DNA from: Cetorhinus maximus
Lineage: Eukaryota
Reading direction: 5' to 3'
Assembly (NCBI RefSeq): GCF_964194155.1
Contig: NC_135891.1
Coordinates: 85,808,001 to 85,872,000, forward strand
DNA length: 64,000 nt
Shown here: positions 10,061 to 46,530 of the stretch, one piece after another
Layout: each line of letters begins with the position of its first letter
How positions within the stretch are numbered: position 1 is the first letter of the stretch
The notes under the pieces: model-generated
Seen by the model: the letters and a program-made list of their open reading frames with translations, nothing else
Told to the model about the DNA's origin: nothing
Databases searched by the model: none
Translations under genes and position numbers: made by a program

Positions 10061-10440
10061 GAGAGAATGTTCCAATCCAATGTCTCTATCGACCAAAACT
10101 CAAACTTGAAAACAATGCAGAGTGTACTAAAATAGGGATCCCCTAGTTAGTCAGACTAGGTTGACTGCAGGCTAATTGGATCCAATCTGACTAAGACTGG
10201 TCCACTTCCAGCATGAATTCTGTTGATTGTTTTACTCCCGATGACACCACCACAACAAGGGTTTTCAGCCCGATTTTATACTTTGGCTGCATGGCAACTG
10301 CTGTCGTGCTTAATTCTTCTGAGCCACTTGATTGGCAGTCTCTGATTGGTTTCTGGATTGTGTGGTATGATTCAAGAATTGTCACCTCATTTCTGCAGCA
10401 AATTTAAACTAGCCTTAAAACATTTTCTTATATTTACTAT

Positions 10441-23460: not shown

Positions 23461-25404
23461 CAATGAATTAAGGAGAGCAGGCAGGCTCTTGAAGCAAGAG
23501 GGCCAATCAGAGAGCTTGGACCTTGAAAGCAGGTGCAGAATGCCATTCAAGATAAGTGAGGGAGAGAGTGCTTCAAAATTGAACTACCCTCTTATTTTTT
23601 AACATTTGAAATAAAAAATGGCCTTGGTGGCCAAGCCGCCAATGTTGGAAGGGGAGGGGCCCTTTTACAAAGCAGCCTGCAGCTGCAGCTACACCTCAAC
23701 AAAGTGGGAAGGCCTTCCAACCTGCCTAGGTGCTATTTTTATCGTTCACCCTCTCACTTCTTTTCCAGGCTCTAGCAGGGACAAAAAATTCAGTCCAGAG
23801 TCACTCTACTCATATCATCACCAGAAAAATGGGGCTTTAGATGTCTTATCTCCAACTGTACTCTTGTCTCGCAGGAGAACTTCATAAACCTGCTTATTGG
23901 TTCCAAATTTCCTCATTGTCTTCACTACTTTAGAATGAAAGAACTTGCATTTCTATTGTGCAATTCCCCATCGCAGGATGTCTAAAATTGCTTTACATCC
24001 AATGAATTCTTTATACATAACTTCTGTTACAGACAGGAGTGGGGAGATAATTTAAACAGCACTAACTTCTCCTCCCACCACCCACCCATAAACAGAGAGA
24101 TGTTTTTGATTTGTTTCCCTCTTTACAAGCAGCGGCATATTTTCCAACCCCTCAGTTTTGGTGCGATCCAATTTTCTATTAATAACCCCACAGGAAACTT
24201 AAGATAGGATGAACTCAAAGGGGTTAGTCTAGTTGCAAGCTCAAAATGCAAATGGAGGATTCTCACATTGCCTCCACATTCAGGCGGTAAAGAGAGGGAT
24301 AGCGAAAAGAAAGATTTACAGTGCAGAGACCACACAGAAAAGGAATATTGTTTCACATGGGTTCCAGAGTCCAGAATCAAACCTAATGAATCAGTCTTGT
24401 CGGCAATAGTATATAATTTCCTACAGAAGTAGTATGGCTGGAGCCAGTTGTTCAACCTGGGCACAGGTGAGGCTGCCAGTTAGACAGTAAACAGCAGATT
24501 GAGCTATTCAGCCCAGCAAGACAATATTATTTGTACAACAAGCCAGAGGCCTAGGTCATGTGTCTTTACCTTTCCACAATGTCTTCAACAAAGGATGTTT
24601 ATCCAGTGTTTGTAAATTGGCTTGGTGTCCAGGCTGATAATTTCTTAGCCATTATGGGTTAGAAGCAATGTTTAAGAGGCCATTCTATCAGTAAACGTTC
24701 CATCACTGCTGGCCAGCCTGGGTTATCAAATACAAAGTGCCTTCGATGTAGCTCCTTTTGAAGTTGGGCTGTGCAGTCCCCGGGTGATGGTTAGTAGCTC
24801 CTCAGAGATAATGAGGTGTGAGATTTCCCAAACTGCAAAGTGGCTTCTTTTGTTCTGGGGTCACAAACAGACACAATTTCAGCCATTTTAAGGACCTTTG
24901 TTCATCTTTTAACATTTTGGAAATAGCCATGAGGATATCTATATATATTTTATAAAAATTTACAGTGTGAATTCTTAGTCCTTCACACTTAATTAAATTC
25001 TTAAAAATATCCCTAGGTCCTGTGGTGACTCTGATATCCAATAGCAGGGGAGACAGGGTAGTGGCAATGTCACTGGATTACATATCCAGTGGTGCAGGCT
25101 AATGCTCCAGGAGCAACATTTCAACTCCCACTGTGACTGGTGGAATTTTCATTTAACAAGTTAAAATGGCAACTATGAAAAAATTGTCAAAATCCATCCA
25201 CTTCACTGATGTCCCTTCGGGAAGGGGATTTGCTATCCTTACCTGGCCTGGCTTATATGTCACTCCAGATGCACAATAATGTGGTTGACACTTAAGTGCC
25301 CTCTATAATTCCCTAACAAGCCATTCAGTTCAAGGATAATTACAGATGGGCAACAAGTGTCGGCCTCGCCAGCGATGCCCACATCTCATCAAAAAGAATT
25401 TAAA

Positions 25405-27280
25405 CTGTGGTCACCGCAATAGAGTCCAGCTGACCTTGAGCTCAGGTCGGAGCTGGTGCTGCTGATCTGGGCTGTCTGCAAGGCAGAGAGGCTGCGGGAC
25501 TTGGACAGGAATGTGAAGCACTGGCTGGATGACTTCCTCGTTGGTTTTCTGAGGGTGTGAAAGGATACCTGGTCCTCCCCTCCCTCCAGCACTGAGGCAA
25601 TGGTGGCAGGAGCACTATGCTTCTGACATGAAGGCAACCATAGCCAGCTTCAACATCAGCGGCAGCAGAAAAGCACAGTGCAGATTCCAGAAGTTCTCAG
25701 TCCTCGGGGGCGGGAGTATGCGGTGTGCTTCCTGCAGGAAAGCATTACCGTTCTGGGAGACAAAGCTAAGTGGCTCCGAAAGTGGTGAGGGGGAGGTCTA
25801 CATGAGTCATCTAGCCTCCAATTCTGGCGGGGTGGCTATCTTGCTTGCCCCACATTTTCAGCTGGAGATCTTGGGAATCAAGGAGCCAGTGTCAGGCCGC
25901 TTGCTGCACCTTACTGTGCGCCTGGGGGGGGGCATGGCGCTTCACTTTGTGAATGTGTACGCTCCCCTGGGCTCACAGCAGCAAGCGACATTCTTTGAAG
26001 AAGTGCCCACTCATCTCAACTCCATTGAAGTGCATCGTCCTTGGGGGTGATTGTAACACTCAGGAACTGTCTCAGTGCCCAGCATTAGGTGTGAGTAAGT
26101 TGAGGGACCTGGTCCGTTCCTTCGACTTGGTGAACGTCCGGCGACATCTCCATCCTGACTCCATGGTGTTCACTTTTGTGTCCCCTGAGGTCGGAGCGTT
26201 CAGATTCCACCAACTTTACATTTCCATGGCCTTCGTGCCCTGCGTCCTGTCGATCGCCGTGTAACAGGTGCCTTGCTCAGACCCGCCTGGTGTGGGCGGA
26301 ACTCGCTCCACTCTGCGCTCGGACGTTTTCCACGTACTGGCACTTTAACAACCTGCTGCTGGAGGACAAGCAGTTCCTGGACTCATTCTGTCGTTTCTGG
26401 GCTGGCTGGAGAAGGAAGCGGGGAGGCTTCCCCTCTTTGAGGCTATGGTGGGACGTGAGCAATGCTCATCTCCATGTCTTCTATCAGGAGTGTACGCAAG
26501 GGGATCGACAAAGGCGGAAATCCAGGGTCAAGGAATTTGAGAAGGAGGTACTTGACCTGGAGGCATGACTCAGTCAGTCCAATGCCGACCCGGCCATGGG
26601 ACAGGTATACGAAGAGAATTAGTGCGCAATATGGGGACTACAATTCATCTGGTCCCGTGGCACATATGTGAGGTCACGGATTCAGTTCCTCAAGGACCAG
26701 GACCACGTCTCCCCATCCTCTACTCGCTGGAAAAAGGCACGGGGTCCGTCAGCAGCTCCTTACGCTGCTGGCCGACGACGGATCCCTTGTGTCGGACCCA
26801 GAGAGTATCAGGGCTCACGCCCGAGCCTTTTACACTGCCTTGTTTTCTCTGGATCCGCCCAGCGAGGATGCTCGCAGAGTTCTGTAGGAGGACCTACCGC
26901 AGGTCGGCCCGGAGGATGCCGGAACGATTTCTCCCCATGAGTCTAGGGGGGGCCGACCCCTCAGCACCCTCAGCAGCCTCTCTAGAGGCTAGTCCTCGGG
27001 GCTGGAAGGGCTGACCGTGGAGTTCTTCAGCGCGTTCTGGGACATCCTAGGGAGCGACTACACGGAGACCCTGGGGGAGAGTATCGCAACCGGGGAAATG
27101 CCCCTCTCATGGCACAGGGCAGTCATCGCCCTACTGCCTAAGTGGAATTTCCGCCTCCTTAAAAACTGGCACCTGGTCTCCCTCCTCAGCACGGAATATA
27201 AAATCTTCGCCAGGGCCATGTCTTCTCACCTTGGCACCGTGCTGGAACACTTGATCCACCCAGACCAGTCTTACACGATC
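25405..27280 (+). mobile_element. Tx1-clade retrotransposon fragment, unit 2
   Basis: Paralogue; ORFs 25628-26050, 26176-26568 and 27017-27292. Confidence 0.88.
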
Positions 27281-29115
27281 AGGCGTGTCTGATTCAGGCA
27301 AGCAAGCTATAAAAGTTTGCCTAGCAATTGGGAATGAAGGTCCACACAGACTGAACACGTCAGGATTAGCGGAGGAAGAGCTAAAGGATCCCCAAAAGAC
27401 ATGGATTACATTGGAAGACTGGGTCAAAATCAAGTTAAACTTCAATATTCATCAACTAGTGCTCACATCATTTCAACAACAGCCTGCAGAACCCATAGAT
27501 CACTTAGTCAGCAGATGAGAGAAAAGGGTACGTACTGTGATATTTCAAACGCAGACAGAATTGTTGAGTTGGTGATCCCACCCACTACATTGGAAGAGTT
27601 ACAGACAAGCCCAAAACGTAAAGCATTGAAGTACTACTCAAGGATAGACGGAAATACAAGGTGATCCTCGCAGGTCGATGAAGATTACAGGTCCTCAGTA
27701 CAACCTCAATTGTTGAAGCACTCACTAGAACACCCAAACCTAGCATAACATATGGAAGGCGTGGCTTTCTGCATGCACCAAGGAACTTCCCAGCTTTCCA
27801 GCAATTCTGCAAAGATGTGGCAGAATGGACCATTGGCAGTAGCAGTGCACTAGGCAAATGCTGATGCAGCTACAAACGGCCATGTACTGATCCAAACAGA
27901 CTGTTCACAGTGGCTACCTTCAAGCAATAAGCATGACCATTCATTATCCCGTCAGAAACATGTACATGAGGTGACTAACAAACCAAAACATGACAATGAT
28001 GTGCACGATGAGGCAAAGAGCGGAAAACACATGTTTCACACTGCCAATCTCATGGAATACGTAGATGCCATCTCACTATCTGAAGTATTTGCCAAGATTA
28101 AAATTATCCGTCCTAAGAAAGTTGTCAACTGCTGATTATTGGCTAAGATCGACACAGGGCAAATGCCAACATACTCCTTCTGCAAATTCTAAATGAAAGA
28201 TATCTTCAGACATGGCAGGCCATGGCAAAACCTACTACCTCACACTTTCAGCGTACAACGGTTCACTTAGACCATGTGAAGGATCCACCATCTTGGAGTG
28301 CAAGTACAATCAATTCTCCTGGGTGCCAAAGATGTTCTTCATCGTAGAAACAAAAGGCCCAGCGAGTGAAGGTCTACCAGCATGCCATGGACTTGCACTA
28401 GTGACAATCCATGGAATCAGCCAGACCTCAAAAATCCGATCAGTCTCAAAAACTACTGCTTGAACCTCAATTTCTGACCTAACATCAAAACATCCGGAAT
28501 GTTTTTCCACAAAATTGGCAGTTTCAAAAGAGATACATCATTACGCTTGTAGCAGAATGCAAGTCTGTCAACTGATCTGGTGTATTTTGCGCAGTGCAAA
28601 TGCCAGCAGCTGCAAGAAGAAACAGCAAAATATTCTACAGTGCTGAAACTGTGGAAAACCATCACTAAATGATGTGCTGATTGTATTTAGTATGTTCATG
28701 AACACCTGAGGCCATTTTGGCCTTACCAGGATGTGCTAGACATCTCTCGGAGAGTCAATTTTAAAGGCAAGCCAGTCGTCATATCAGAATATTTACAAAT
28801 TGATATTCTTCAACAATGTCATCACTCACAAGTGGGCACAAATCAGACAAGCCGACCTGCAAGAGACAGTTTATTGGCAGGGTATGAACAAAACATTGAG
28901 GTCATTTCCAAGAAGTGCATGAAATGTCAAGAGAAAATGCCAAGTCAGCACAAAGAATCGCTGTATCCGCATTAAGTTCCTACGCATTCTTGGTCCAAAA
29001 TGGCATCCGATTTCTTTCACGTTCATGGTATTGATTTCATTGTCATCATCGACTACTTATCAAAATAACCCATCATTTGACCATTACACAATATGTCAAG
29101 CACAACTGTCATGCA
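27281..29115 (+). mobile_element. Gypsy LTR retrotransposon remnant, unit 2
   Basis: Paralogue; ORFs 27285-27518 and 28733-28975. Confidence 0.82.
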
Positions 29116-30877
29116 CAGGATACAGGAGGGAACTCTTCCTGACAGTGCTATGCGAAAACTCTTCTATTATCTGATCCATGCAATCTTTTTACATCCTGAG
29201 ACAACAGGCTGCCCTTTTTTTAATGTCTCACCTGAAAGTGTGCACCTCTGGCAGTGCAGTTCTCCCTCAGTACTACACTGAAATGTCAGCTTACACATTG
29301 TTTACCAGCTTCTGGTGTAGGATGGAACCCACAACTTTCAAACTCAGAGGTGCGAATGCAGGGTTCATTCGAGCCGTCACGTGCTGCAAGGTCTGATGAC
29401 ACCCAAGTGGGAATAAAGGAAGACATTTCCCACAGGAAGCCTGGGAACTCCACTGACACAATGCTTGATGTAGACAGGGGATGCTGGAGACTGATTCCCG
29501 CCCCTCCACCCCCCAACCAACCCCACCCCCAACCACCACCACCCACTAGCAAGCAATTTCAAGCCAATAACAATACATTCAGTTCTGCCCCAAATTCCAG
29601 TTACAGCTGGGTGACCCACCCATTGGATCCAGATGGGAATAGTGCAGAGTCCTGCTGGCAAAAACAACTGTTGTCAGCGACAGAGACAACAGAGTTCGAC
29701 TGCATCTTAGACACAGCATTGTCCATTGAGGATCGAAGCCACCATAATCCTCAATTGTTCTACCTTGCTGACATGGGGAATTTGCACTATCAATTAGCAT
29801 GCTGACTACAGAACCAAAGGGACAACATATGCAGTAGTCCTCAATCGTATTTTGTATCTCATAGAATAGTCACAGGATAGAAATATCGCTGCCCATTTTC
29901 CTCACACTGCTGCATTTAAAGTCACTAGTTGTTATGGATTCAGGTTCCTTATGAGTGCATTATCCATGAGACATGCCACAGCAGACTCCTAATTCCTCCT
30001 TTAAGATGCTCCTTGACTAAACTTTTAGTCACCTGCCCTTGGCTTCCCTGGCCCTGTGTCAAATTTTATTTCAATTTGTTCCTTTGGATCAACTGGGTAC
30101 ATTCTACTACATTAAAGGTGTTATAATACAAGCTATTTTTGGTGTTATCAGGGGTGCCATCTGCTGCCCTTGTCCTTCTAGGTGATAGAGGTTGCTGATT
30201 TGGAAGGTGCTGTCGATGGAGCTTTGGTGAGATGCTGCAGTATATAAAGTATACAAAGCAATTGAAATGAAGACACGATAAAGTTGCAAATCTCTTCATC
30301 TTTGTATGAAGCATGAATCTATCTTTTATCAGAAATTTAACGTGAGTGCTTACAACATTTTATGGTTTCAGTAATTAATTGGTTAAATTGTTGAACTGAA
30401 ATGTGCTCCTTTACGCAAATGTACATTGAGTGAAAGTTTGTAGCCTAGTTTAAGCGGTTTAAATCTTAAACTGTCAAACCATCTCCACCATGTACAAGGT
30501 TCTACTCATGAGTAACACGGAACATTCTTCATTCACTTTGATGCATGAAGCCACAACCACACTCAAAAGGCTTGACACCATCCACAACAGATCAGTCATT
30601 TAAACAACACTCCTGTGGCTTAATAACCATCAGCGTATTGTGGCAGCAGCTAACTTTGAGATGCACTGCAGAAACTCACCCCACTGCCTTCAATAGCACC
30701 TTTTAGCCTCACACACTCTTCCAACAAGAAGGACCAGAGCAGGAACACCATGAGCACACAACCACCTCCATTCAACATCCTGGCCTGGGAATATATGTAA
30801 TGTCTGAGAGAATGTTCCAATCCAATGTCTTTATCGCCCAAAACTAAAACTTGAAAACAATGCAGAGTGTTTTAAAA

Positions 30878-31060
30878 ACAAAAAGCTAAAAGCTACTGCG
30901 GATACTGGAAATCCAAAGCAAAGGATTCTTATATTTCACCTTTCTCCTAACTATACTCAGTTCTGCCGAAGGGTCATGAGGACTCAAAACGTTAACTGAT
31001 TTCTTCTCCACCGATGCTGCCAGACCTGCTGAGTTTTTCCAGGTAATTCTGTTTTTGTGT
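30878..31060. mobile_element. Penelope-like element-derived insertion with a 17-bp target-site duplication (unit 2 only)
   Basis: TSD tgcagagtgttttaaaa at 30861-30877 and 31061-31077; single copy at the empty site in unit 3 (~50649). Body gatgctgccagacctgctgagtttttccag resembles the elasmobranch Penelope pLTR repeat and contains a minimal hammerhead-like fold. Confidence 0.72.
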
Positions 31061-31387
31061 TGCAGAGTGTTTTAAAATGGTCCTCCCCTGGTTAGTCAGA
31101 CTAGGTTGACTGCAGGCTAATTGGATCCAATCTGACTAAGACTGATCCACTTCCAGCATGAATTCTGTTGATTGTTTTACTCCCGATGACACCACCACGA
31201 CAAGGGTTTTCAGCCTGATTTTATACTTTGGCTGCATGGCAACTGCTGTCGTGCTTAATTCTTCTGAGCCACTTGATTGGCAGTCTCTGATTGGTTTCTG
31301 GATTGTGTGGTATGTTTCAAGAATTGTCACCTCATTTCTGCAGCAAATTTAAACTAGCCTTAAAACATATTCTTAATATGCAATCAT

Positions 31388-32606
31388 TTTTTTCATTCTT
31401 TCACGGGACGTGGGTGTCACTGGCTAGACAAGCATTTTTATTGCCCATCCCTAGTGGCCCTTAAGAAGGTGGTGGTGAGCTGGCTTCTTGAACCGCTGCA
31501 GTCCCTGTGGTGTAGGTACACCGACAGTGCCGTTAGGAAGGGAGTTACAGGATTTTGACACAGTAGCGGTGAAGGAACGCTGATATAGTTCCAAGTCAGG
31601 ATGATGTGTGGCTTTGAAGGAAACTTACAGATGGTTGTGTTGCCATGATCTACTGCCCTTGTCCTTCTAGGTGGTAGAGGTCACGAATTTGGAAGGTACT
31701 GTCGAAGGAGCTTTGGTGAGTTCCTACAGTGCATCTTGTAGATGGTACACATTGCCACCACTGTGCGTCGGTGGTGGAGGGAGTGAGGTTTTGTGGATGT
31801 GATGCCAATCAAGTGGGGGCTGCTTTGTCCTGGATGCTGTCAAGTTTCTTCAGCATTGTTAGAGCTGCACTCATCCAGGCAAGTGGAAAGTATTCCATCA
31901 CACTCCTGACTTGGGCCTTGTAGCTGAGCAGGCTTTGGGGAGTCAGGAAGTAAGTTACTCTCCACAGAGTTCCCAGCCTCTGAACTGCTTTTGTAGCCAT
32001 AATGTTTATATGGCTGGTCCACCAGAATGCTGATAGTGGGGTTTTAGTGATTGCAATGTCATTGAATGTCAAGAGGAGAAGATTGTATCCTCTCTTGTTG
32101 CAGATGGTCATTGCCCGGCACTTGTGTGGCAAAAATATTACTTGCCACAAATCAGCCCAAGCCTGAATGTTGACTGGGTTTTGCTGTATATGGGCACCAG
32201 ATGCTTCAGTATCTGAGGGGTCACGAGTGGTGCTGAAATAGTGCGCAATCATCAATATACATCCCCATTATTGACCTTATGATGGAGGGTAGGCCATTCA
32301 TGAAGCAGCTGAAAATGGTTGGGCCTAGGACTCTACCCCGAGGAACTCCTGCAGTGGTGTCCTGCGACTGAGATAAATGACCTCCAACAACCACAGCCAT
32401 CTTCCTTTGTGCTTGGTATGACTCTAACCAGTGGAGATCTTCCATTGACTCCAGTTTTGCTAGGGCTCCTTGATGTGACACTTGGTCAAATGCTGCCTTG
32501 ATGTCAAGGGCAGTCACTCTCACCTCACCTCTTGAGCTCAGCTCTTTTGTCCATGTGTTGGACCAAGGCTGTAATGAGGTCAGGATCTGAGTGACCCTGG
32601 CGGAAC
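31388..32606 (-). mobile_element. CR1/L2-group LINE fragment, unit 2
   Basis: ORFs 32221-32523 and 31809-32255. Confidence 0.88.
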
Positions 32607-33007
32607 TATGACTTCATCATTGCTGGCTCAAAAGCCTGGAGATTACCCTGAAAATCATCATGGGAGGACTACCCCTCAAAAAGACCCATCACTAGCCTCT
32701 CATCACAACTAAGGATTGGCAATAGCATGACCTTACCAACACTGTTCTCATCCTGTTAATTACTTTATAAGGGTAAGCTGGAGCAAAGTGACTTGTATGG
32801 TTCTAAACGTTGTTGCAGAATTATAAAATGTTCCAGCCCAAAAATAAGCCATTTAGCCCATCGAGATAGTTTTCTTCACTTGAACCTTCTAGTATCCTTC
32901 CACTCACATGATCACACACTGCACTCTTTACAAATCTCTTATTCAAGCAGCTATTGCATTCCCTAACTAGGAAGAGAAAATGACAGTCAAATTATTTGAA
33001 ATTTCCT

Positions 33008-33013
33008 TTTATT
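33008..33013 (-). terminator. Polyadenylation signal AATAAA of the intact gene (paralogues at 12062-12067 and 52596-52601)
   Basis: AATAAA ~250 nt downstream of the TGA stop on the coding strand. Confidence 0.6.
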
Positions 33014-33259
33014 GATTAGAAGAAACACCATTCAAACAATCCAAGACCACAGCAACAAAATTCAGTTCACATTGCAACATTTTCAAAAATGCAGTTGAAG
33101 ACAAGGTGAGGTTGTTCCATGTTGCATCTAGAATTGATAGAGTCTTTAATACAGATTTAATCAAGAAACTGGAAGCTCAGTTACAATATCAAATAGTTGC
33201 TAAATACATTACGACATCTAAAATAACTTCTTCCACATTCTTGTTGAAGTCGAAATTCT

Positions 33260-33356
33260 TCAGATTAGAGGGTATGAAGCACAATAGGTAATTCCACACA
33301 TGTCCTTGCCCATCACTAAGCGCATGTAGCCACTCTCACCCCATGATGTTCCCCAG
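33260..33356 (-). CDS. Intact cathepsin, exon 8 (C-terminus)
   Basis: (S)WGTSWGESGYMRLVMGKDMCGITYCASYPLI*. Confidence 0.93.
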
Positions 33357-36300
33357 CTAGAAAAGCAAGACTATTTGTTAATATCTAAAACCAACCTCAT
33401 TACATACAAAATGAATAGAGTAAGGATCCTTGCAAGCTTGCTTCTGTAATATTTGCAACTTTTTCATTTGCCTTGAATGCATTTGGTTTTAGCTTATGTT
33501 ATCAACATGAAATCAGGTTCACTTTACATAGAATTTGCTTCTCAAGTTATACAACCATCTAGAAAAACTAATAGGATAATTAGGTGAAATACCAAATGGA
33601 AGAGCCAACATTTTTATATAATCTTACAGATCAGATTAGTTTTGAGACAATGAGGGATTATTGAGTGCAGCCAGTTTGCAGCCATAATGGAAGGATAGTT
33701 GTCATTTAAATTGCATAGCAGAGGACATAGCTAAACCAACAATACAGTGAGCTTTCACATCCTGGGAAGTGGGCTGGGGAGTACACTCAAGGTGGAAACA
33801 GTGATTAGCAGCTGGTCAGGACTATCCTCAGTACATAGAGCAGAGGGAAGAATCAAAGATCGGTTTTTGCCTCTCATCTTTTCCTGCTCTAATGGTAAGT
33901 GCCAGTTAGTTGAGAGACTGCTATGTAGGCAGAGAGCTTACGCGGCAATGGGGCAAGGTTAATTAGTCTCATTATATTTATCGCACAAGGTGCAATGCGA
34001 AATAAATGAATCACATTGTAAAGATTGTATTGTGTTCATTAATATCTTTTATTGCATTGGTTCGTAATTGGCCTTGCCTTCGTGATCCTGTTAGGAGGGC
34101 CAAACTCAAGCCTCTGTTCCTTAATCCTTCCTCATCATCAGATAATTGATTTCCAGGCCTTCTTGGCCAGCATCCCTCTATATAATCTCTAAGATCCAAA
34201 AGATTTCCATTATGTCTGATGTTCTTAATTTGTAGATATTACTTACCTGTTTTTAATGATCCAATAGCCTTTTGGATGTTCATCCACATAGCCTATCAGG
34301 AGCACTGAATGATCAATTTTCTTACTGTTGCAGTCAACATCGTCAAAGATACCTGTAAAATGGAAGATAGTACTATACATGAAAGTAACTCCAAACTCGT
34401 ATCTGAAATAACATTATAAAAGATTGGAAAGGTCAGACAACAAGATTTTGTATTCGTATGCCATCTTTCACCAAGCAACTTGTCCCAAGGTCACCCAAAC
34501 AGGAAGCAGTTAGGGAAGGTGACTGGCCTGGTGAAAGAGAGAATTTCAAAAGAGAGAAGTAGCAAAGTGAAGATGCTGAGAATATCCCTGAAGATGGAGT
34601 GTTACCCCATTGGTCCTCTTGCATGGATGTCTTGTACAGGGAGATTATGTGATAGAATCTGAACCATGGTGAATGAATAAAAGTTTAGAGTTTTCTTTAC
34701 CTGATGTGTAATATCTGAAGGAATGATGTGATGAACGAATAAGTACTGAAATTGGTCCAACATTTGCCACTAATGCAGCTAATTTTTTCTCAGTATAGTT
34801 CTTAATCCTTCTGAATCCTTTAACTTTGGTGACACTCTTAGAGCTACTAAATAAGCACTTATTGTTCCTCTGTAATTAAAAATATAAGAGTCTGTTTAGC
34901 AAATTGGCTGATAATAATTTCCATAAACTTCAACATTGTATCACAGGCAAAACCCCACTCAAATACCACAGCCCAGCCTTGTTCTTCTCCCCTATCTCTT
35001 ATTCCTTCAACACATCAACGTCAAGTACCTCACCCTCTTCAAAGCCTTACTCATTCCAAACTCGCCATAGTCTCTCAGCCTAAAATTCCTAAACAAATCA
35101 TCCATCACTTGGATCCTGTGCATTCCCCTGTCCCTCTCACTCACCGATCAGTGTCAGGCCCATCTGGACCCAGCCCTTCCACTCTGAATCTCTCCCTCAC
35201 ACTCTCTCTCTCTAAGCCCCTTTGTCTTTCTGCATCTTCACAGGCGGGATGAGGTTTCATGTTGGGTTTTAAAAATTTTAACAAAGTTCTGTTGGAAATT
35301 ATGAACATGTCCCAACCCATGTGACATTGTCACATGAGGGGACATGTAAGGGAAATTTTATTTTTCTATTTTGAGCTTTTTTACATGTAGAGCCTGCACT
35401 TAGCCACAGGGAGATGAGTGCGCTCTTTCCTTCGCATGCGTGAAAGAGCGCACTCTCGGTTTTGGGCATTTCACCCCACCCACACATGGTGCGCAAAGGC
35501 CCGCCCACACAAAATGGCACCACGCCGGGGGCACCGGATGGCACCGTATGCGCCCGCCCACCAACGGGGGGAAAATTCAACCCAAATTGTGTTGCCTGCC
35601 ATAACTTGGAGGCCACTCATATTCAAGGATTCCAACTTGATGAATGCCTTTTTTTCACAAGTTTAACTCTTCCTACTTAATGTTTCACAGCCATTTGATT
35701 CATCAAGGAGTGAGCGTCATTGGAAGGTGCTATAATTGAGAAATGATTACTGGGGAGAGACAAGTTCTGTTAGGAAGGACAATGGACTAATTACTCCACC
35801 AATTCACTTTAAGAATGAAGGACACCCTTGCTGCTGATATTCAAAATGTCACTTGCTTGCCACTTTGCATGAGGATACTCGGATCTAGGCAACTTCTGTA
35901 AACACATTTCGTAAAAGCTAAATGAAACTGTACCTTAAACCAGAATATCTTTCAGAACAGCCTTTATGACAGCCCTGTTTAACTGTGGGAAATGAAGACA
36001 GTCAGTGTACAGTGTGCAGCAAGTGTACCTTTGCTTGGTAGGGGTATGACTGATCAGATTGAATGCCATGGTCTCGCACGTATTCCAAGGCGCGGTATGG
36101 CAAGCCTCCGTTGCACCCATAATTCTTATATCCATCAGAACAGTCAATGATGTTTTGTACACTCAGGTCCATGAGTTGGTTTGTTTTCTTGGCCAACTGA
36201 CCTTCCACAGCTCCGACTGCAGTAAACGCATAGCAGGATAAACAGTAGCCCTGAAGAGAAAACAGATAAGTTGGCAAATGCTAAAATTTTAAAACCTTTT

Positions 36301-39300
36301 CTTCATGATCTTCACTATTTTGATTGAAAACTAATAAAGAGTTCAGATGGTTGACTATATCTTTGCCTTGCTTGCTGATATACACTCCAGGGGGAGGGAA
36401 TGGACATGCAATCTGTTCTGCAAAATATTCTGCTCCAGACTATTGCCCTTAGCTGAATATCAATTCACTTTGGGGTGTCCAAACCTCAACTCATGGTCCA
36501 TATCCTGCCCAAGTGGCAGAACACAACAGTCCAACCCCTCTCACCAAAATTTGAGGACAGCAGCATAGCTTGAGAAGCAAGAACCAGGTGAATTACAGAT
36601 TGCAAGTGAGGATGAGAAAGCACAAGTGGCCAAGGAGTATAGATGATTACAAGGCTTTCATCTATGCCACCTCTGTACTTTCTCAAGCCCAATAATATGG
36701 TGAAATCGGGCAAGTCACATCATGCTTAAGGGACTCCACGGCTTCAATTTCAATTGTCCTCCCAACCCAAAGTCCCAATTCTTGCTGGATCGAAGATTTC
36801 ATTCCCATGGTAACCTTGCCCTCTGGAGAAATTGCCACAAGTAAGGAACCCTGCAGAGCAGAGTGTTACAGGGTTGGATTTACAGCGCCTTCCTCTCCCC
36901 CCGCAACCGCACACCCCCCCCTTCAAACATGGCATATTTTCAGTTGCGAGGGCACATAAAATATAATGGGTGGCTAGCCTACGGCCTATACCCAACCCAT
37001 TCCCCATAAGACAGGCACCCACTAGGCCACCTGCCCTTAGGCCTATTGAGGTTTTTAACTGCCCAATTAAGTGGTAATTAAGGCCTCTACACACCTATAT
37101 CACCATAATACCCTGAGCATTGGAAGGCAGGCAAGAGTGAGGAGGCTTTTTTTTAACCAATGTTGTTGAAAGGAGGGTTAGGATGGGTGGGTGTCCATCT
37201 TCAAGGGGTTCCATGTATGTATCAGAGCAACACCCCCCCCCCCCCCACCTTGGCATCCAAAACCCGCCCCTCAACGCCCCCATGCTCCCACCCTAGTGCA
37301 TCCAATCCCTTCCCCACAAAGAAACCCCGGACTCATCTTATCCGCAGTCCATGACACTTCCAGTCCCAGCAGCACCCACTTCTCTCGCTTGGCACTGCTG
37401 GGACTGCAAGAGCTGCCAGCCGATCTAATTGGCTCTTCAGGTTGGGACTTCTTCCACTGAGGGACGGACATTCCATTCTCTGCTTCGTAAGGCCACCCAC
37501 AGCCTATTATCACAGGCCTTATTTAACGAATGTTGGTTTCCAGCCAATATTTCTTCCAGGATGCAAGCAATACGCTCCCCCACATCCCACCCCTGGCAAA
37601 ATTGAATGCACAGAATCTTGTGGTTGCACATACTTCACATAAGAACACATTGACTCCTTATCATTGTTTTTTTGAACCATGTGATTTCATAACATGAAAG
37701 TATTAAAAGTCCTCTTGTAAATCAGCTTTGATTATTTTATTTTCTCATACAGACCTTTGAAAATATGCCAAGCACGTGAAGTGTTAGAGCAGAACATTGG
37801 CACTGGGAATTTCTGAAGACCATTAATGTGTATGTATCTTTATTAACATCCAGGGGGAGAATTTCGCGACGTCAACACACGTCATTCTGATGCTCTATTT
37901 AAAAACTAATTAAAGTAATTAATTGAGCTGCCCGTCCAGCCTTAAGATTGGCGGGAAGGTGAAGAGCCCAGGCAGCCTTCGCATTTATCATGAAACCTCA
38001 TCCACGGGTGGGATGAAGTTTCATGAAGGGTTTAAATATTAAATGAAGTTTTTACTAAAGTTCATTGACATGTCCCAGCTCATGTGACACTGTCACATGA
38101 GGGGACATGTCTTAAAATTTTATTTTTCTTTCTTAAAATTTTGAAAAATCAAACTAATCTCCCTGAGGCAGCTCTGTGCCTCGGGGAGATTTCTGCACTC
38201 TTTGGCGCTCATGCGCAAAAGAACACAGGCCCCAGCTCAGCCTACTCCCCCCGCACGCAAAGGGAGCACTCAGCACTTCCTGGTGTGCGTCATGCTGGGC
38301 AGGCCTTAATTGGCCCGCCCACTCAAAATGGCAGCACCCAGGCAATCGGCAGCGCGCTCGCCCGCGCCTGCTCCCACACAACCAGACCCACGCCCTGCGC
38401 CCCCCCACAATGGGGATAAAATTCTCCTCATGAAAAAATGTTTCTCTGTTACCTATCTGAATCAAACACTTCGACCCCAATTGCCTGCTGCAGTTCATAG
38501 TATCGCTACCTACTGGCTCTTAGAGGAACAGCATCCATGAATTGTTCCCCCTGCTATTTGCCACAGTTCCAATTTCTCAAAACACAAGGTGGTTAAAAAT
38601 GATAAAAGCTTGAAAATAAAAATCCCTGGAGTCAAAATATTAAACAAGAATACAGCCCTAGCAAACTCAATCTTAGCAACTGACCTGCATTGAACAGAAA
38701 TGGTGTGAAGTAGTAGGTACCTGGTTCTTTACTTTACTAACATAGCCCATTCGACGCCAGTCCACCTCTTTGGGAAAATGAGCAACGTCCTCCATTTCTT
38801 CCAGTTCCTCCAAACTCTGGTGACTTCTTCCAGTTCCGCCAAAATCTGACAACACATCATCTGTATAATTTGCCATTTCGGAAATCCTTGCATCAGTGAA
38901 CAAATGATCAAACTCCATTGGCGTCTGGAAGAAATAGTTGCAGAATGCTTACTATGAGACTTGTGTTGTTATAATGATATTAAAGCGCCAATCACTCATA
39001 AGGGATTTGGTAAACAAGCTGTGGCTTCCTTTATTTAGACAAGGCACATGGGAACATTTATACAGAGGTAGAAAGCTTGAAGACACCAGCAGCAGAGCTG
39101 GCTGCTGTGTGTTCTGTTGAAAAGCAAAAGTGAAATTGATTGCAGCATGACAACGCTAGAGGGAAGTGGGTCATGCTTGAATCCCTTAAAGGCATATTAC
39201 AACAAGACTATTTCTATAAAAAATGCAAAGCCAAAATCAATTTGTTTGCACAGTTGTAGCTCCACACTGTCCCATTATGTTTACCATTTGCAGCCATGAT

Positions 39301-42300
39301 TGATGATAACAGAGTTGGAACTTTCTATCCTAGGTGCATCTAAAATGGAAGCTCTGTAGAGTCAATGGGGCACAATGGCAGATAGCTCTTGACTATCAAG
39401 ATTCCGGGAAATTTGAAGGAAGTGGAAGTGATTTATTTTGATTTTAAACAAGGTTTGTGATAGCGGGCCGCACAGAAAACTAGCCCACAAGTCAAGGAGG
39501 CATCAAATATGAGCCAAGCAATGAGGTGGGTTAGTAATTGGCTAAAGTGAAAAGTGGTTGAAAATGGAGCTGTTTTGATGTGTATAATTCTGGGTGCAGT
39601 CTTGCAGCAAGAATAACAAAGCATTCAAAACAGTGCAGAAAAGGGAAAACAAGCTGACAGGTAGGTTCAGACATTGAAGTGAGAAGAAGTGGTTAAAGAA
39701 GTGGCCCTGGATTCTTTATTCTGGTGGAGAGAAGCCTCAGGGTGATATTATTCAATATTTAAAATACTAAAGAAAAAGATAAATTCAATCCAAAAAAAAA
39801 TTTGGGATTGTCACAGGTCGCAGAACCAAAAGACTGGGCTCAAACTAGGAGAAAAGATGGAGAGACAGTTTAGATTTAACTATTTTACACGGTGTTGGGT
39901 GGTGGGGGTTGTGGGGGCGGTGGTGGGGTGGAGTGTGACGGAAATGTGTGCAGTAGATTGCCCACCAAGTCAGTGGAGGCAAATAATGCAGAAAAGTTTA
40001 AGAGAGATTTAGGTAGATGATTGTGGGTGTGGGTGATTGAGAGAAATTAGGTTTGCAAAGCAGCCAGATGGTCTACAAAGACTTTACTGATTTTTTCCAG
40101 ACTTCCAAGTTCCTTCTTTAATATTTGTTCTCAGGATGTGACCATTTGCGGCAAGGCCACATTCATTAACCAGGTCAGCCCCCTTATTGAACCATTGCAG
40201 GGTGTAGTGATGTTGAGCGATTCATTGTTCATGGAAATGTTTTGTTCACATGAAGTTAGTTATATAGTTGAAGATGACAACTGGACCAATGGACATAGAA
40301 ATAATTCCAACTGTTATATTCTTTTCCAGCAAGGCAGGTTGGCTTAACTGGGATAAAGTTACTCTCCATCATGCCCAGTATCAAACCAGCAAATCTGACA
40401 TTATTTGCATGACTCACCAAGTCTCCAAAGCCATTCATGGCCATTTGATACATAGAATTTCCTTGGCGATACTGAGCATTGTGAGCTTCAATCTTCTCCA
40501 GGTTGTCCAGCCAAATTTCCCTCCTGGCCTGATCTTCCTCCTACACAAAGAGATTGGGTCATTATAGTTCAATACCAATAGAATCCAATGCCCAATGTTA
40601 TTGCTTGCCTTCAAGTAGAAAGAAGATACTGAAGTTGGAGACAGCAGGTTCCTTCCATGGGTGAAGGCAGTTGAATGCTCAAGTAGTTGGTGGCACCACC
40701 TGATGTTAGCTACAGTGGTAGAACAAGGTAGAGTGACAGAAGTGCATGCATTGTCAAGATCATCAAAATTAAATTTGGAGGCGAGAAGACCCAAAGATAC
40801 AATCTCTAGGTCAGAGCTAGCATTAGAACTGTCAGGAGCAAAGAAAGGAATGGATAAACCAAAGAAGTTTCAGGAGATCGTTTGGAAATAATTAGGTAAA
40901 ACACATGGGGTAAAAGACAATAGTCATGGCTCATTTCAATAAGGTATGAATAACCTTGGGATTTAAACTGTGAGCAAAGAAGCCAGGGGAAAAATACAAC
41001 TTCTCAAATCTGAAGCAAGGCTTTACATGACACCAAATTTCTTTCTCACAAAATACATGACATATGGAATAGACACTTGGCTAAATCAATTCATGATGCC
41101 AGGCAAGATTTAGTTGAACAGGCACCATAAATGTACCTCTAGTGGTGTGGGAACCTACCATTCACATCATAATTAATGGAGCTCCCTCTGATCCTGACAA
41201 TTTCAGCAGTATAAGTGAGGGAGGTCACAGAATCCCCATTCCTGCCCCTCTCCAGGCTCACGTTTGCAAATATACAGACCCATTTTCCTCAAGCTGCAGG
41301 GTCCAGTCCAAATTTAGGTTCCTGACAACTGTGAAAGCATCCTAATTTGTCATGTCATGTTTGGCTGCTTCCAACAACAACAACTTGTATTCACATACAA
41401 GTATATACAGAAGAGTTAAAGCAAAATTTGACAGTGAGTAACATTAGGTGATGTTAAGGCCGATGGTCAAAAGCTGGGACAAAAAGGTAGGTTTTAATGA
41501 GCATCTTAAAGGTGAAAAGAGAGGTAGAGAGACAGAGAGGTTTAGGCAGGGAATTTGAGAGCTTGGGACCTAGGCATGGCCATCAAGGGTGGATCAATTA
41601 AAATTGGGGATGTGCAACAATCCAGAATTTGATGCAGCAGATATCTCGGAGGGTTGTGGGGCTGGAGGAGATTACAGAGATAGGGAGGGACCAGGCTATC
41701 GAGGGATTTGAAATCAAAGGTGAGAATTTTAAAATTGAGACATTGCTTAACCAGGTACCAAAGTAGATCAGCGAGCACAGGGGTTATGGGTGAACGGAAC
41801 TTGGTGCAAGTTAGGATACAGGCAGTAGCGATTTGGATAACCTCTGGTTTACACAGGATATAACGTGGCCGGCCAGGAGTGTATTTGAATAGTGAAGTCC
41901 TGAGCTAACAAAGGTACGAATGAGGGTTTCAGCAGAAGATGAAGTGAGAGAGTGGCAGAGTCAGTCGATGTAAAGGAGGTGGAAATAGGCTGTCTTAGTA
42001 ATGGCAGAGATATGTGGTCAGAAGATTAGTTAGGGGTTAAATATTTCAACAAGGATACAAACAGTCTGATTCAGCCTCAGAGAGCTGCTAGTGGGGTGGG
42101 TGGGGATGAGTTGGTAGCTAGAGAACAGAGCTTTTAGCTGTGGAACTGAAGATGATGGCTTTGGTCTTTGCAATATTTGATTGAGGGGAATTGAGAAAAA
42201 ATCCATTATTTGTGTTTTACAAATTTGACACAAAGAAATGGTCAATAACTGGCATTGTATTGATTGGCCTTTAATATCTAAATCACCATGGAAGGACATT

Positions 42301-42563
42301 GTGTTTTTTGATTATGGCTCTTACTGAACAACATTAACAGGTGCGGGGTGGGGGGTGACTTCCACATTTCAAATTGACCTTCTCAAAACAATGTAGTAGT
42401 CCCTCAGTGCTCTATTAGAGAATTAGCTTAGGTTTCTTACCAGACTAGGGTAGCTCTTCCCATACTCCTGCTTCCAGCTTTCCCATTCCTCGTCAATGAT
42501 TGGGTTTGTCGAGGCCATGGAGATAACAGTCAGGATGTACGTTACAACCAGGAAAAATACCAT
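33260..42563 (-). CDS. Intact procathepsin L-like (C1A papain family, L/K/S type) cysteine protease, 347 aa, 7 coding exons
   Basis: join(42563-42441, 40540-40418, 38924-38721, 36250-36029, 34869-34701, 34352-34247, 33356-33260) = 1044 nt, open frame, all introns GT-AG, phases 0,0,0,0,1,2 as in vertebrate CTSL/CTSK/CTSS. Signal peptide MVFFLVVTYILTVISMAS. I29 prodomain with ERWNIN-type (EDQARREIWLDNLEKIEAHN) and GNFD-type (MNGFGDLTPMEF) motifs. Mature domain: PKEVDWR, VKNQGYCLSCYAF, CNGG, GPISV, IDHSVLLIGY, YWIIKNSWGTSWGESGY, CGI, ASYPLI*. Kozak ACCATGG. Confidence 0.93.
34247..34352 (-). CDS. Intact cathepsin, exon 7 (catalytic His and Asn)
   Basis: GIFDDVDCNSKKIDHSVLLIGYVDEHPKGYWIIKNS; 106 nt; cag/gtaagt borders. 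Confidence 0.93.
34701..34869 (-). CDS. Intact cathepsin, exon 6
   Basis: RNNKCLFSSSKSVTKVKGFRRIKNYTEKKLAALVANVGPISVLIRSSHHSFRYYTS(G); 169 nt. Confidence 0.92.
36029..36250 (-). CDS. Intact cathepsin, exon 5 (catalytic Cys)
   Basis: GYCLSCYAFTAVGAVEGQ...LSVQNIIDCS...GCNGGLP...YPYQAK; lies within ORF 36002-36277; 222 nt. Confidence 0.95.
36870..37608. mobile_element. Second GC-rich TIR-type interspersed repeat (left end deleted in units 1 and 3: ~15955-16540 and ~56537-57125)
   Basis: Ends gttggatttacag...ctggcaaaattgaa; internal ccaattaagtggcaattaaggcc and the inverted pair cagtcccagcagc/ctgctgggactg. Confidence 0.5.
38721..38924 (-). CDS. Intact cathepsin, exon 4 (pro/mature junction, oxyanion Gln)
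   Basis: TPMEFDHLF...LEELEEMEDVAHFPKEVDWRRMGYVSKVKNQ; lies within ORF 38673-38918; 204 nt. Confidence 0.92.
40418..40540 (-). CDS. Intact cathepsin, exon 3 (I29 inhibitor prodomain)
   Basis: EEDQARREIWLDNLEKIEAHNAQYRQGNSMYQMAMNGFGDL; tag/gtgagt borders; 123 nt. Confidence 0.92.
42441..42563 (-). CDS. Intact cathepsin, exon 2 coding part (signal peptide + start of I29 prodomain)
   Basis: MVFFLVVTYILTVISMASTNPIIDEEWESWKQEYGKSYPSL, then donor GTAAG. Confidence 0.9.
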
Positions 42564-43465
42564 GGTGAAATGTTGAACACGTCAAACCTGTAACAAAGTT
42601 GGTTTTCTTTGTGAGAAGCTCTGGGCAATAAAATCAGAAGAACGGGGAGAGGTAATGCAAGAGTATAATCTCACAATCCTACCCTTGTTATTTCGATGCC
42701 CTGTAAATAAACCAATATTCTTTGTATGATCTCATCATTTTTGGCGGAATGAGAACAGAGTGGGACAAAGGTGTAGGATTTAGTCTTCAATTGTTTCAAA
42801 CAACAACTGTAGAAAGAATATGTATCACCAATTCATTCAGATGAGGAGAGAATCAGTTTGTGAAATATACAATGTCTCTGCTCATTATGCACATGAAAAT
42901 GGTCAATTCCCACATGCCCAACAATTTTTACTTACCTTGAAAACACAGTTGCAGAGATTGTAAAGATCATTGACTGGTGTGGGACCTGAAGATAAATTTG
43001 GGGAGAGACCGAGCTGCCTTTAGCCTCAGATTTGATTTAACTCAATGTTCCCAGTCAGTAATACATTGATGGCAGGAATCTGTGATTCCCACTGAATTTG
43101 TCCGGATAATGTCTCGCCATTTAGAAAATACTGTTGATTGTGTGACATTCCACTACCTGCTTTTCTATGGAAGTGCTAATCTATTTACAGTATATTAATT
43201 CCTCTGCTCAAACAGATTTCAATCTAATTTCTTTTCCTACATAACATTTAATTACAATAGTGTGGTCCAGACAATTCTACCAATGAAACTGATGTTCTTT
43301 GCTGTGTTACACTGTTAAGTCATGCAGTGTATTTTTCAGTGTATTACTTATACATTAGCATCAGGCCATTCAATCACACTACATAGAATAGAGACTATAT
43401 CTTACTCACCTCACAAGGACACCTCGGTTATTTAAATGACACAAACCATTTGGGACCAGATTGTG
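42564..43465 (-). other. Predicted spliced 5' UTR of the intact gene (exons ~43465-43410, 42985-42936, 42700-42564)
   Basis: Consensus acceptors (atttatcttcag, tttatttacag) and donors (gtgagt, gtaagt) between the TATA box and the ATG. No transcript evidence. Confidence 0.5.
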
Positions 43466-43488
43466 TTGTACTGGAGTTTGAACTGGGG

Positions 43489-43496
43489 TTTATATA
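43489..43496 (-). promoter_or_regulatory. TATA box (TATATAAA) of the intact cathepsin gene
   Basis: Lies ~80 nt upstream of a consensus donor (GAG|GTGAGT at 43410/43409), giving a short non-coding first exon; a CCAAT element sits ~45 nt further upstream. Confidence 0.65.
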
Positions 43497-44069
43497 CCCT
43501 TAGAATATGCAAAATAAACTAATTGCCTCCTAAATTCCACCAATTAGTTCACGGGGCCTGAAGCATTATCTTGGATCGTTTTTTATCTAAAATTATCTGC
43601 CACCTGTAAGTTCCAACCATCAGTCACATAAATTACACATAAATACTCTGCATGGTCTTAATAACATAGTCTTAAAAGATAAAGAGTTGATGTAAATCTT
43701 ATTTTCATGATGCAAGTTGCTAATTTCTTGGTGGAAAATCCAATTAGATTTTGAAGATTCTTGGCAATGTGTTTTGTCATGGAGCCTTCATGCCCCAGGA
43801 TTGTGTCTATGGCAATTGTACAATTTTCACTGCCTTCAGCAGGTGAGATTTTTCAGCTAACAGGTATGTGCAGATTCTACAATCACCGGTAGCCCATAAG
43901 GTGATGACAGGCACTAGCAGTATCTCCACACCAGGGCTGCAACATCAGCTCTTTGTGTGTGTACCTGCAGCAGAGTTAACAAAATCAGTTTGTTTTTTCT
44001 TTTATAACATGTTTCTCATTTCACTGAATAAAATCTTCACCAGTCCCATCTGTATTGTCATGAGAATCA

Positions 44070-44596
44070 TTATAGGAAAGATGTTATTGCACTAGAGACA
44101 GTGCAGAGGAGGTTTACCAGGATGTTGTCCGGGCTGGAGAGTTTTAGTTATAAGGAGAGATTGCATAGACTGGGTTATTTTGCTTGGAGCAGATGAGATT
44201 GAGGGGGACATGACTGAGGTGTATAAAATTATTAGGGGCATAGATAGAGTAGACAGGAAAGCACTTTTCCCCTTGATGGAGGGATCGATAACCAGGGGGG
44301 CATAGATTTAAGGTAAGCGGCAGGAGGTTTAGAGTGGATGTGAGGAAGAGTTTTTTCACCCAGAGGGTGGTGGGAATCTGGAACTCACTGCCTGAAAGGG
44401 TTGTAGAGGCAGAGACCCCCATAACATTTAAGAAGTATTTGGATGTGCAGTTGCGATGCCATGGCATACAAAGCTATGAGCCTAGTCCTGGAAATTGGGA
44501 TTAGAATAGTAAGGGACTTGTTTGACTGGTACAGACACGAGGGGCCGAAGGGCCTTTTTCTGTGCTGTTGACCTCTATGACTCTATGACTCTATGA
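44070..44596 (+). mobile_element. CR1 LINE 3' fragment, unit 3
   Basis: Paralogue of 2011-2537. Confidence 0.88.
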
Positions 44597-46530
44597 CAAT
44601 GAATTAAGGAGAGCAGGCGGGCTCATGAAGCAAGAGGGCCAATCAGAGAGCTTGGACCTTGAAAGCAGGTGCAGAATGCCATTCAAGATAAGTGAGGGAG
44701 AGGGTGCTTCAAAATGGAACTGTCCTCTTATTTTTTAACATTTCAAATAAAAAATGGCCTTGGTGGCCAAGCCGCCAATGTTGGAAGAGGCGGGGCCCTT
44801 TAACAAAGCAGCCTGCAGCTGCAGCTACACCTCAACAAAGTGGGAAGGCCTTCCAACCTGCCTAGGTGCTATTTTTATCGTCCACCCTCTCACTTCTTTT
44901 CCAGGCTCTAGCAGGGAAAAAAATTCAGTCCAGAGGCACTCCACTCATATCATCACCAGAAAAATGGGGCTTTAGATGTCTTATCTCCAACTGTACTCTT
45001 GTCTCGCAGGAAAACTTCATAAACTTGCTTATTGGTTCCGAATTTCCTCATGATCTTCACTACTTTAGAATGAAAGAACTTGCATTTCTATTATGCAATT
45101 CCCCATCGCAGGATGTCTAAAATTGCTTTACAACCAACGAAGTACGCTATACATAACTTCTGTTACAGACAGGAGTGGGGAGATAATTTAAACAGCACTA
45201 ACTTCTCCTCCCACCACCCACCCATAAACAGAAAGATGTTTTTGATTTGTTTCCCTCTTTACAAGCAGCGGCATATTTTCCAACCCCTCAGTTTTGGTGC
45301 GATCCAATTTTCTATTAATAACCCCACAGGAAACTTAAGATAGGATGAACTCAAAGGGGTTCGTCTAGTTGCACACTCAAAATGCAAATGGAGGATTGTC
45401 ACATTGCCTCCATATTCAGACAGTAAAGAGAGGGATAGCAAAAAGAAAGATTTACAGTGCAGAGACCACAGAGAAAAGGAATACTGTTTCATATGGGTTC
45501 CAGAGTCCAGAATCAAAACCTAATGAATCAGTCTTGTCGGCAATAGTACATAATTTCCTGCAGAAGCAGTATGGATGGAGCCAGTTGTTCAACCTGGGCA
45601 CAGGTGAGGCTGCCAGTTGGACAGTAAACAGCAGATTGAGCTATTCAGCCCAGCAAGGCAATATTATTTGTACAACAAGCCAGAGGCCTAGGTCATGTGT
45701 CTTTACCTTTCCACAATGTCTTCAACAATGTCTGATCCAGTGTTTGGAAATTGGCTTGGTGTCCAGGCTGATAATTTCTAGGCCATCCTGGGTTAGAAGC
45801 AATGTTTAAGAGGCCATTCTATCAGTAAACGTTCCATCACTGCTGGGCAGCCTGGATTATCAAATACAAAGTGCCTTCGATGTAGCTCCTTTTGAAGTTG
45901 GGCTGTGCAGTCCCCGGGTGATGGTTAGTAGCTCCTCAGAGATAATGAGGTGTGAGATTTCCCAAACTGCAAAGTGGCTTCTTTTGTTCTGGGGTCACAA
46001 ACAGACACAGTTTCAGCCATTTTAAGGACCTTTGTTCATCTTTTAACATTTTGGAAATGGCTATGAGGATATCTATATATATTTTATAAAAATTTACAGT
46101 GTGAGTCCTTCACACTTAATTAAATTCTTAAAAATATCCCTAGGTCCTGTGGTGACTCTGATATCCAATAGCAGGGGAGACAGGGTAGTGGCAATGTCAC
46201 TGGATTACATATCCAGTGGTGCAGGCTAATGCTCCAGGAGCAACATTTCAAATCCCACTGTGTCTGGTGGAATTTTCATTTAACAAGTTAAAATGGCACT
46301 ATGAAAAAATTGTCAAAATCCATCCGCTTCACTGATGTCCCTTCGGGAAGGGGATTTGCTGTCCTTACCTGGCCTGACTTATATGTCACTCCAGATGCAC
46401 AATAATGTGGTTGACACTTAAGTGTCCTCTATAATTCCCTAACAAGCCATTCAGTTCAAGGATAATTACAGATGGGCAACAACTGTTGGCCTCGCCAGCG
46501 ATGCCCACATCTCATCAAAAAGAATTTAAA

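Follow-up and report, generated by a model that had tools for sequence, protein, structure and literature searches.

The vertebrate cathepsins are commonly regarded as a closed repertoire (B, C, F, H, K, L/V, O, S, W and X) in which Gly23 (papain numbering throughout) is nearly invariant. According to published work, the S1 pocket is lined by Gly23 and Gly65, and the S2 pocket is formed by residues 67, 68, 133, 157, 160 and 205 (PMC9712828, PMC3071364). The enzyme family itself is well known, as are variants with a narrowed cleft in plants, flukes and beetles. For instance, papaya glycyl endopeptidase (proteinase IV, PDB 1GEC) keeps its catalytic residues and carries a side chain at position 23 in the S1 wall; its Glu23 and Arg65 bar all P1 residues but Gly, and their reversion increased kcat/Km on Z-Phe-Arg-pNA 5.3-fold (PMC4220004, PMC13737867). 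Replacement of Gly23 by Phe restricted access in docking (PMC4336737). Fasciola cathepsins L2 and L3, like other lineage-specific cathepsin L expansions, are duplicates with a changed S2 pocket and changed specificity (PMC3071364). The sole human cathepsin that lacks Gly23 is cathepsin W, which has Asn at this position (PMC9712828). It has also been reported that a "cathepsin L2" (ctsl2) of the cloudy catshark branches outside the L1, K and S clades and that haematopoietic cells in the yolk sac membrane express it at very high levels (PMC8923501). The literature searched, from which subscription papers were largely absent, contained no description of the subfamily presented here.

The window analysed here, 64,000 nucleotides (85808001-85872000) of contig NC_135891.1 of the basking shark (Cetorhinus maximus), contains on its minus strand a cathepsin L-like (C1A) gene that, on balance, probably encodes an active protease: judged from its sequence, it is an intact procathepsin of an old, elasmobranch-specific subfamily, with a groove that is likely narrowed and cut sites that are likely restricted, in contrast to a broad digestive protease. 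The gene has seven exons with GT-AG borders and an open frame of 347 amino acids, comprising a hydrophobic signal-like N-terminus, an I29 propeptide and a mature domain of 216 residues. Exon 1 (42441..42563) carries the start codon, the predicted signal peptide and the start of the I29 propeptide, and exon 2 (40418..40540) carries the ERFNIN-type and GNFD-type propeptide motifs. Exon 3 (38721..38924) encodes the propeptide stretch that lies in the cleft (Asp77p/Ala78p), an acidic linker, the mature N-terminus and Gln19. The cleft residues are distributed over exon 4 (36029..36250; Leu23, Cys25, Tyr26, Gly65-Gly66 and Leu67-Pro68-Tyr69), exon 5 (34701..34869; Leu133, Arg135 and an Arg at the S1' column, papain 142) and exon 6 (34247..34352; Ile157-Asp158-His159-Ser160, the IGYV motif and Asn175), and exon 7 (33260..33356) adds Trp177, Cys200, Cys205 and the stop. 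Membership of the cathepsin L-like C1A family is supported by the Peptidase_C1 domain, the catalytic residues and an I29 domain with both motif types; Pfam I29 (PF08246) was detected with E values of 1e-20 on P0125, the near-identical copy B whose exons 1 and 2 do not differ from those of the focal gene, and 1e-18 on P0004. High-copy repeats with very deep read cover lie in introns at 35096-35727, 37940-38571 and 41416-42047.

The motifs that had been quoted in the original prediction were all found where it had placed them, its papain numbering was correct, and the catalytic residues that it had listed are kept, as are six disulfide cysteines. Within QGYCLSCYAF, the codons (minus strand) lie at 38723-38721 for Gln19, 36241-36239 for Leu23, 36235-36233 for Cys25 and 36232-36230 for Tyr26. 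The Gln19 codon is at the end of exon 3 and lies outside the span 34247..36250 that had been named for the active site, which corresponds to exons 4 to 6. Leu67 and Pro68 of CNGGLP are encoded at 36103-36098, Leu133 and Arg135 of GPISVLIRS at 34743-34741 and 34737-34735, His159 and Ser160 of DHSV at 34311-34309 and 34308-34306, IGYV at 34287-34285 and Asn175 at 34251-34249, all on the minus strand. Contigs of a public sequencing run, possibly of the same sample and hence not independent, matched the CLSCYAF codons without difference. Another run, presumed to be RNA, gave no match on the exons, a result that speaks neither for nor against expression. The public annotation gives another picture: the NCBI model of this copy (XP_078410863.1, P0001), named "testin-2-like" and 232 residues long, is identical over exons 1 to 4, runs into intron 4 (35996-36028) and skips the intact exons 5 to 7, so that it lacks His159. 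The model of copy B, like some others, lacks the last exon, the NCBI lamniform models of these copies are truncated, and automatic names within the subfamily are inconsistent (procathepsin L-like, cathepsin K-like, S-like and testin-2-like). The present gene structure thus corrects a public model that is both truncated and named testin-like. Testin-type inactive homologues are defined by the loss of the catalytic Cys; this assignment was rejected, since Cys25 is present in all orthologues and the name belongs to a truncated model.

The focal protein is about 41-48% identical to vertebrate cathepsins K, L and S (MEROPS C1A) and resembles them in its signal, I29 and Peptidase_C1 layout, its catalytic residues, its three disulfides and its fold (Z of about 41-42), but it forms a separate clade, for which three homologue searches and one HMMER library scan gave no bony-vertebrate member, lacks Gly23 and has Leu133, Tyr26, Asp77p and an acidic linker. 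The fold was examined on a stand-in, the Heterodontus orthologue, which is 74% identical in the mature part and was modelled by AlphaFold (pLDDT 90, pTM 0.87). Its best matches were human procathepsin K (Z 42.0, rmsd 1.9 A over 312 residues), the top PDB match by a slight margin, and procathepsin L (Z 41.5, 1.8 A over 310 residues), and the rmsd to mature cathepsins L, V and K was 1.1-1.3 A. In the model, the papain fold is retained; the model speaks to fold, not to pocket size, and its low-confidence stretch, residues 108-117, is the acidic linker.

Exon 4 and the mature domain of the Heterodontus orthologue, used as search queries, revealed orthologues in 15 other sharks and rays, and the close relatives returned by these searches were from sharks and rays only. 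An HMMER scan of 1.84 billion representatives found no further close relative beyond sharks and rays in its best 150 matches, and no chimaera or bony-fish orthologue appeared in the homologue searches or the scan, a weak negative given word-limited searches and 50% clustering. Two quick trees, for which SH-aLRT was the only support measure, both recovered the orthologues of the 16 species as a single clade (SH-aLRT 99). The truncated models P0001-P0003, P0008, P0010 and P0128 were excluded from the trees, P0009 and P0134 from the second tree as well, and so were four paralogues of the same genome that had no complete exon set in the DNA examined. Since this clade spans sharks and rays, which separated roughly 270-300 million years ago, the gene is older than that split. 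A different gene on another contig grouped with mammalian CTSL/V (SH-aLRT 99); the focal gene did not, and it fell outside the clade of CTSS-named amphibian and teleost sequences (support 99 in a quick tree without bootstrap). Its S2 residues Leu67, Pro68, Leu133 and Cys205 differ from the Tyr67, Met68, Ala133 and Leu205 of CTSK, of which the trees held no verified sequence, and matches in the search for synteny with the CTSS/CTSK block (GOLPH3 and HORMA) fell on other contigs. The stem branch of the subfamily is long (0.33-0.36 changes per site). Mature-domain identity to Heterodontus, Stegostoma and Rhincodon is 74, 71 and 73% for the focal gene and 81, 74 and 75% for a canonical paralogue, and by this comparison the focal gene evolves at a rate close to that of the canonical paralogue.

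Among elasmobranch candidates for the same protein, the skin-mucus cathepsin L (PMC10707392) was rejected because its accession is A0A401PTT0, while the orthologue is A0A401PSG6. The catshark ctsl2, judged by its published description (PMC8923501), may or may not be the focal gene, as sharks have several such divergent clades. The Asn of human cathepsin W recurs at position 23 in the Pristis, Mobula and Amblyraja orthologues. Cathepsin W is a member of the F/W group; the top matches included no F/W sequence, nor did the tree.

For the comparison of cleft residues, the family was represented by 15 sequences, one per species, with the truncated Pristis sequence excluded. The background, biased to cathepsin L-like proteins, consisted of 234 C1A proteins, which remained from 254 other hits after removal of 19 without C..C[WY] and one member of the sister clade. 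At position 23, the family has Leu in nine, Ser in four and Asn in two of the 15 sequences, never Gly, and Pristis has Asn; the background has Gly in 215 of 234, in agreement with the earlier statement that Gly23 is highly conserved, Leu in one and another non-Gly residue in 17, or 18 non-Gly proteins in all. Therefore, the reported change from Gly23 to Leu stands as a loss of Gly23, seen in 16 of 16 species, none of whose orthologues has the canonical CGSCW, but not as a fixed Leu, which alternates with Ser and Asn even within Scyliorhinus (Leu in S. torazame, Ser in S. canicula). Position 133 is Leu in 14 sequences and Ile in one, while Leu occurs in 2 of 234 background proteins. Position 160 is Ala (eight), Ser (five), Val (one) or Phe (one), with Ser in a single background protein; GY-Val is found in 14 of 15 family sequences versus 2 of 234; and position 135, Asp in 180 and Arg in none of the background proteins, is His, Tyr, Arg or Cys. 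The list of remodelled sites first put forward was thus borne out for Leu23, Leu133, Arg135, Ser160 and GY-Val, which are rare, but not for Leu67, Pro68 and Tyr26, which are ordinary (105, 27 and 22 of 234, Leu67 being the commonest residue there), as is Ile157 (21 of 234). Leu67 is the residue of human cathepsin L and Pro68 that of papain, which has Val133 (PMC3071364). On this alignment, the novelties that are fixed comprise Leu133 and the absence of Gly23, but neither Leu23 nor Ser160 as such. At the column that we take to be S1' from its mapping to papain 142, Arg or Lys is present in 13 of 15 family sequences versus 21 of 234 in the background. Gly65 and the disulfide cysteines C22, C56, C63, C95, C153 and C200 are kept in all 15, Cys25 in 18 of 18 sequences, and His159 and Asn175 in 17 of 18, the exception being a truncated model.

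These counts bear on whether the protein might be an ordinary, broad-specificity endopeptidase of the cathepsin L/K/S type, whose substitutions were tolerated and drifted to fixation along a lengthy ancestral branch. We regard this as unlikely. It would be consistent with the residues that are common in the background (Leu67, Pro68, Tyr26 and Ile157), with the variation of position 23 within the family, with the combination of Val133 and Pro68 in papain (PMC3071364) and with a stem branch that is long overall. However, Leu133 is nearly absent elsewhere and yet fixed in the family, the propeptide residues in the cleft changed in step, and the genome already contains at least eight canonical CGSCW paralogues among the ten modelled.

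Three features had escaped the original prediction, namely the propeptide residues in the cleft, the charge of the protein and an adjacent sister gene. The cleft of procathepsin L is occupied by Gly77p and Phe78p of its propeptide (PMC4842899, PMC6059440), and propeptide residues in the cleft have a papain analogue (PMC4924875). By an ungapped count from the GNFD-type motif, which defines the register here instead of a structure, position 77p is Asp in 15 of 15 family sequences versus none of the 158 background proteins with a locatable motif; 78p is Ala, Val or Ser in 11 of 15 and never Leu, Phe or Tyr, which occupy it in 109 of the 158. A real change in cleft shape would be expected to produce just this covariation, of a smaller S2-filling propeptide residue with a filled S2 floor. 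Alternatively, since Gly77p is what allows the propeptide to settle deep in the cleft, its replacement could mean a cleft that binds peptides poorly. The latter would fit a weakly active or effectively non-proteolytic, testin-like binder, in which a filled S2, an occluded S1 and Asp77p block productive binding, an explanation to which we give little credence. Dead homologues usually lose one of Gln19, Cys25, His159, Asn175, Gly65 and Trp177, all of which are kept across sharks and rays, and the family has kept a complete I29 inhibitor domain, which an inactive protein would not need. On the other hand, changes of the G23E/G65R type cost papain and cathepsin B much activity (PMC13737867), beetle cathepsins with altered S1 and S2 failed to dock substrates (PMC4336737), and the Mobula orthologue has Cys66 and Phe160.

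Furthermore, the protein is unusual in charge. The net charge of the mature domain is +11 in the focal protein and ranges from +5 to +25 over the correctly ended models of the family, compared with a background median of -4, and the linker, taken as the 25 residues before the mature domain, has a charge of -5 to -10, compared with a background median of +1 (10 of 223 at or below -6). As a parallel, acidic propieces neutralise cationic granule proteins. An insertion of eight amino acids in the acidic linker (exon 3) was observed in the basking shark and Carcharodon sequences only and is deleted again in copies C and E. The self-activation site was rejected as a clue to P1 preference, as no constant residue precedes the mature N-terminus (Gly, Asn, Ser, Arg, Lys, Asp and Ala occur there).

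If the protein is an active protease with a narrowed groove, as we prefer to read it, the following mechanism may be proposed. The proenzyme would enter the secretory route and, through a glycan at the N-glycosylation sequon Asn101 of the propeptide (exon 3), reach lysosomes or granules. As long as the propeptide is in place, the acidic linker would offset the positive charge of the enzyme, which would thus be stored as a charge-neutralised zymogen. In the mature enzyme, Leu133 with Pro68, Ile157 and Ala or Ser160 would fill the S2 floor, leave a shallow pocket and disfavour Phe, Tyr or Leu at P2, which accords with the shrinking of the propeptide's own S2 residue to Ala, Val or Ser. At S1, the side chain at position 23 would constrict the pocket on a single side. 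Papaya glycyl endopeptidase has side chains at both 23 and 65, whereas the shark family has Leu, Ser or Asn at 23 with Gly65; since Leu23 is not fixed and Gly65 is kept, S1 would be at most half as blocked as in the papaya enzyme, with which no common descent within C1A was found as far as tested; any likeness would be convergent. The toggling of position 23 fits relaxed constraint equally well as a designed barrier. The Fasciola enzymes combine Tyr or Trp67 with Ala133 and keep Gly23, in contrast to the Leu133 and lost Gly23 of the focal family. Near the cut, a preference for acidic residues or polyanionic substrates would follow from Arg or Lys at the S1' column together with Asp77p, and the enzyme is predicted to cleave Z-Phe-Arg-AMC poorly and to bind cystatin more weakly.

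The focal gene belongs to a tandem array (84..63543) of units of about 19.5-21 kb, mostly 92-95% identical, with one gene copy per unit. Counting the left flank, there are five copies, of which three (A, C and E) are broken. Copy C (12321..21428, minus strand) has frameshifts in exons 2 and 6, a stop at Gln19 and two further stops, and in copy E (52856..62038, minus strand) exons 1 and 2 contain stops, exons 2 and 3 contain frameshifts, and Gln19 is again a stop. Only one intact copy had been recognised in the original prediction, but copy B is intact as well: its exon 1 lies at 382..504 on the minus strand, and its exons 2 to 7 extend to the left of the window, to about -8600. It has no indel, no stop, GT-AG borders at all splice sites and ten coding substitutions relative to the focal copy; exons 5 to 7 are in frame with 2 of 372 bases different, and exon 5 is identical. 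The Gln19 codon is a stop in all three broken copies (TAA, TAG and TAA in A, C and E), and a 17-bp deletion in exon 2 is common to C and E and absent from A, which points to a mosaic array shaped by unequal crossover or conversion. The Cys25 codon is TGC in all four copies that retain exon 4. The depth of the read contigs differs between the types of copy, but it does not measure copy number and carried no weight here. Tandem duplication recurs in the subfamily, with four models in Carcharodon and two each in Heterodontus and Pristiophorus.

Broken copies (three of five) and truncated NCBI models might suggest that the unusual residues arose as a redundant member of the array decayed under relaxed constraint, but this is very improbable. 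The same residues are present in the orthologues of the 15 other species, which contradicts decay for the subfamily, and the two intact copies have fewer amino-acid changes than their introns would predict. Each intact branch had two amino-acid changes (about 780 sites), compared with 129 and 135 intron changes (7588 columns; Fisher p 4e-4 and 3e-4), whereas broken copy C had 17 compared with 152 (p 0.69), which is no deficit. Broken copy E was likewise in deficit, with 7 amino-acid and 170 intron changes (p 0.009). Synonymous changes on the intact branches were also scarce (2, where the intron rate would give about 7), and therefore gene conversion between the focal copy and copy B may add to the amino-acid deficit. 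The earlier views that the changes do not represent decay and that they predate the duplications both agree with these results, and on much wider grounds than the pseudogene copies first cited, the changes being common to sharks, skates and rays. The altered, narrower specificity first proposed is likely on grounds of sequence.

A sister cathepsin gene (NC_135891.1, about 85768000-85772700, plus strand) is located about 15 kb past the leftmost array copy. It is intact and encodes 270 amino acids, and its signal exon is spliced directly onto the old exon 3, which indicates that the ERFNIN/GNFD exon was lost. Its propeptide of about 37 residues is modelled with low confidence in the S. canicula orthologue, and the residues of the sister protein include Glu23-Ala24, Ser64-Ser65, Trp67-Val68, Thr133 and Phe177; the sister gene is possibly more unusual than the focal gene. 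It was found in ten other elasmobranchs (11 species including the basking shark), all without PF08246, and nine of the ten orthologues are on contigs equally long as the focal orthologue's, a contig being given for nine of the ten. Gly23 is absent here too (Glu in the basking shark, Ala in nine of the ten others). The focal and sister clades are sisters (SH-aLRT 99). Their nearest relative is likely a third clade of elasmobranchs (84), which has Gly23 as well as, in Rhinoraja, Pro68 and Leu133. As Gly23 is missing from both sister clades, it was probably lost before the two genes split. A second cluster on the same contig (79.1-81.1 Mb) contains at least 11 cathepsin L/S-like genes, most with CGSCW. 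Their S2 residues are varied (Tyr-Lys, Ser-Val and Arg-Met at 67-68; Glu160), and single genes stand out by a strongly basic charge (+21 over 201 residues, 79.149 Mb), by Ser in place of both Cys22 and Cys25 (79.416 Mb) or by Asn23 and a stop (79.468 Mb).

More tentatively, and as a proposal that we hold with considerable doubt, the focal and sister genes may constitute a two-gene protease module that, as far as these searches reach, is unique to sharks and rays. One gene would encode a cationic processing cathepsin of narrow specificity, with a co-evolved propeptide, a neutralising acidic linker and cystatin escape, and the other its ERFNIN-less sister; both would share an elasmobranch task, for instance in granulocyte granules or in egg-case and uterine processing. 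If this were true, the module would be a convergent vertebrate counterpart of glycyl endopeptidase. A subfamily that lacks Gly23 and has Leu133 with matching propeptide changes offers a natural test of the co-evolution of S1, S2 and propeptide, and its retention in sharks, skates and rays alike suggests an elasmobranch function that has yet to be described.
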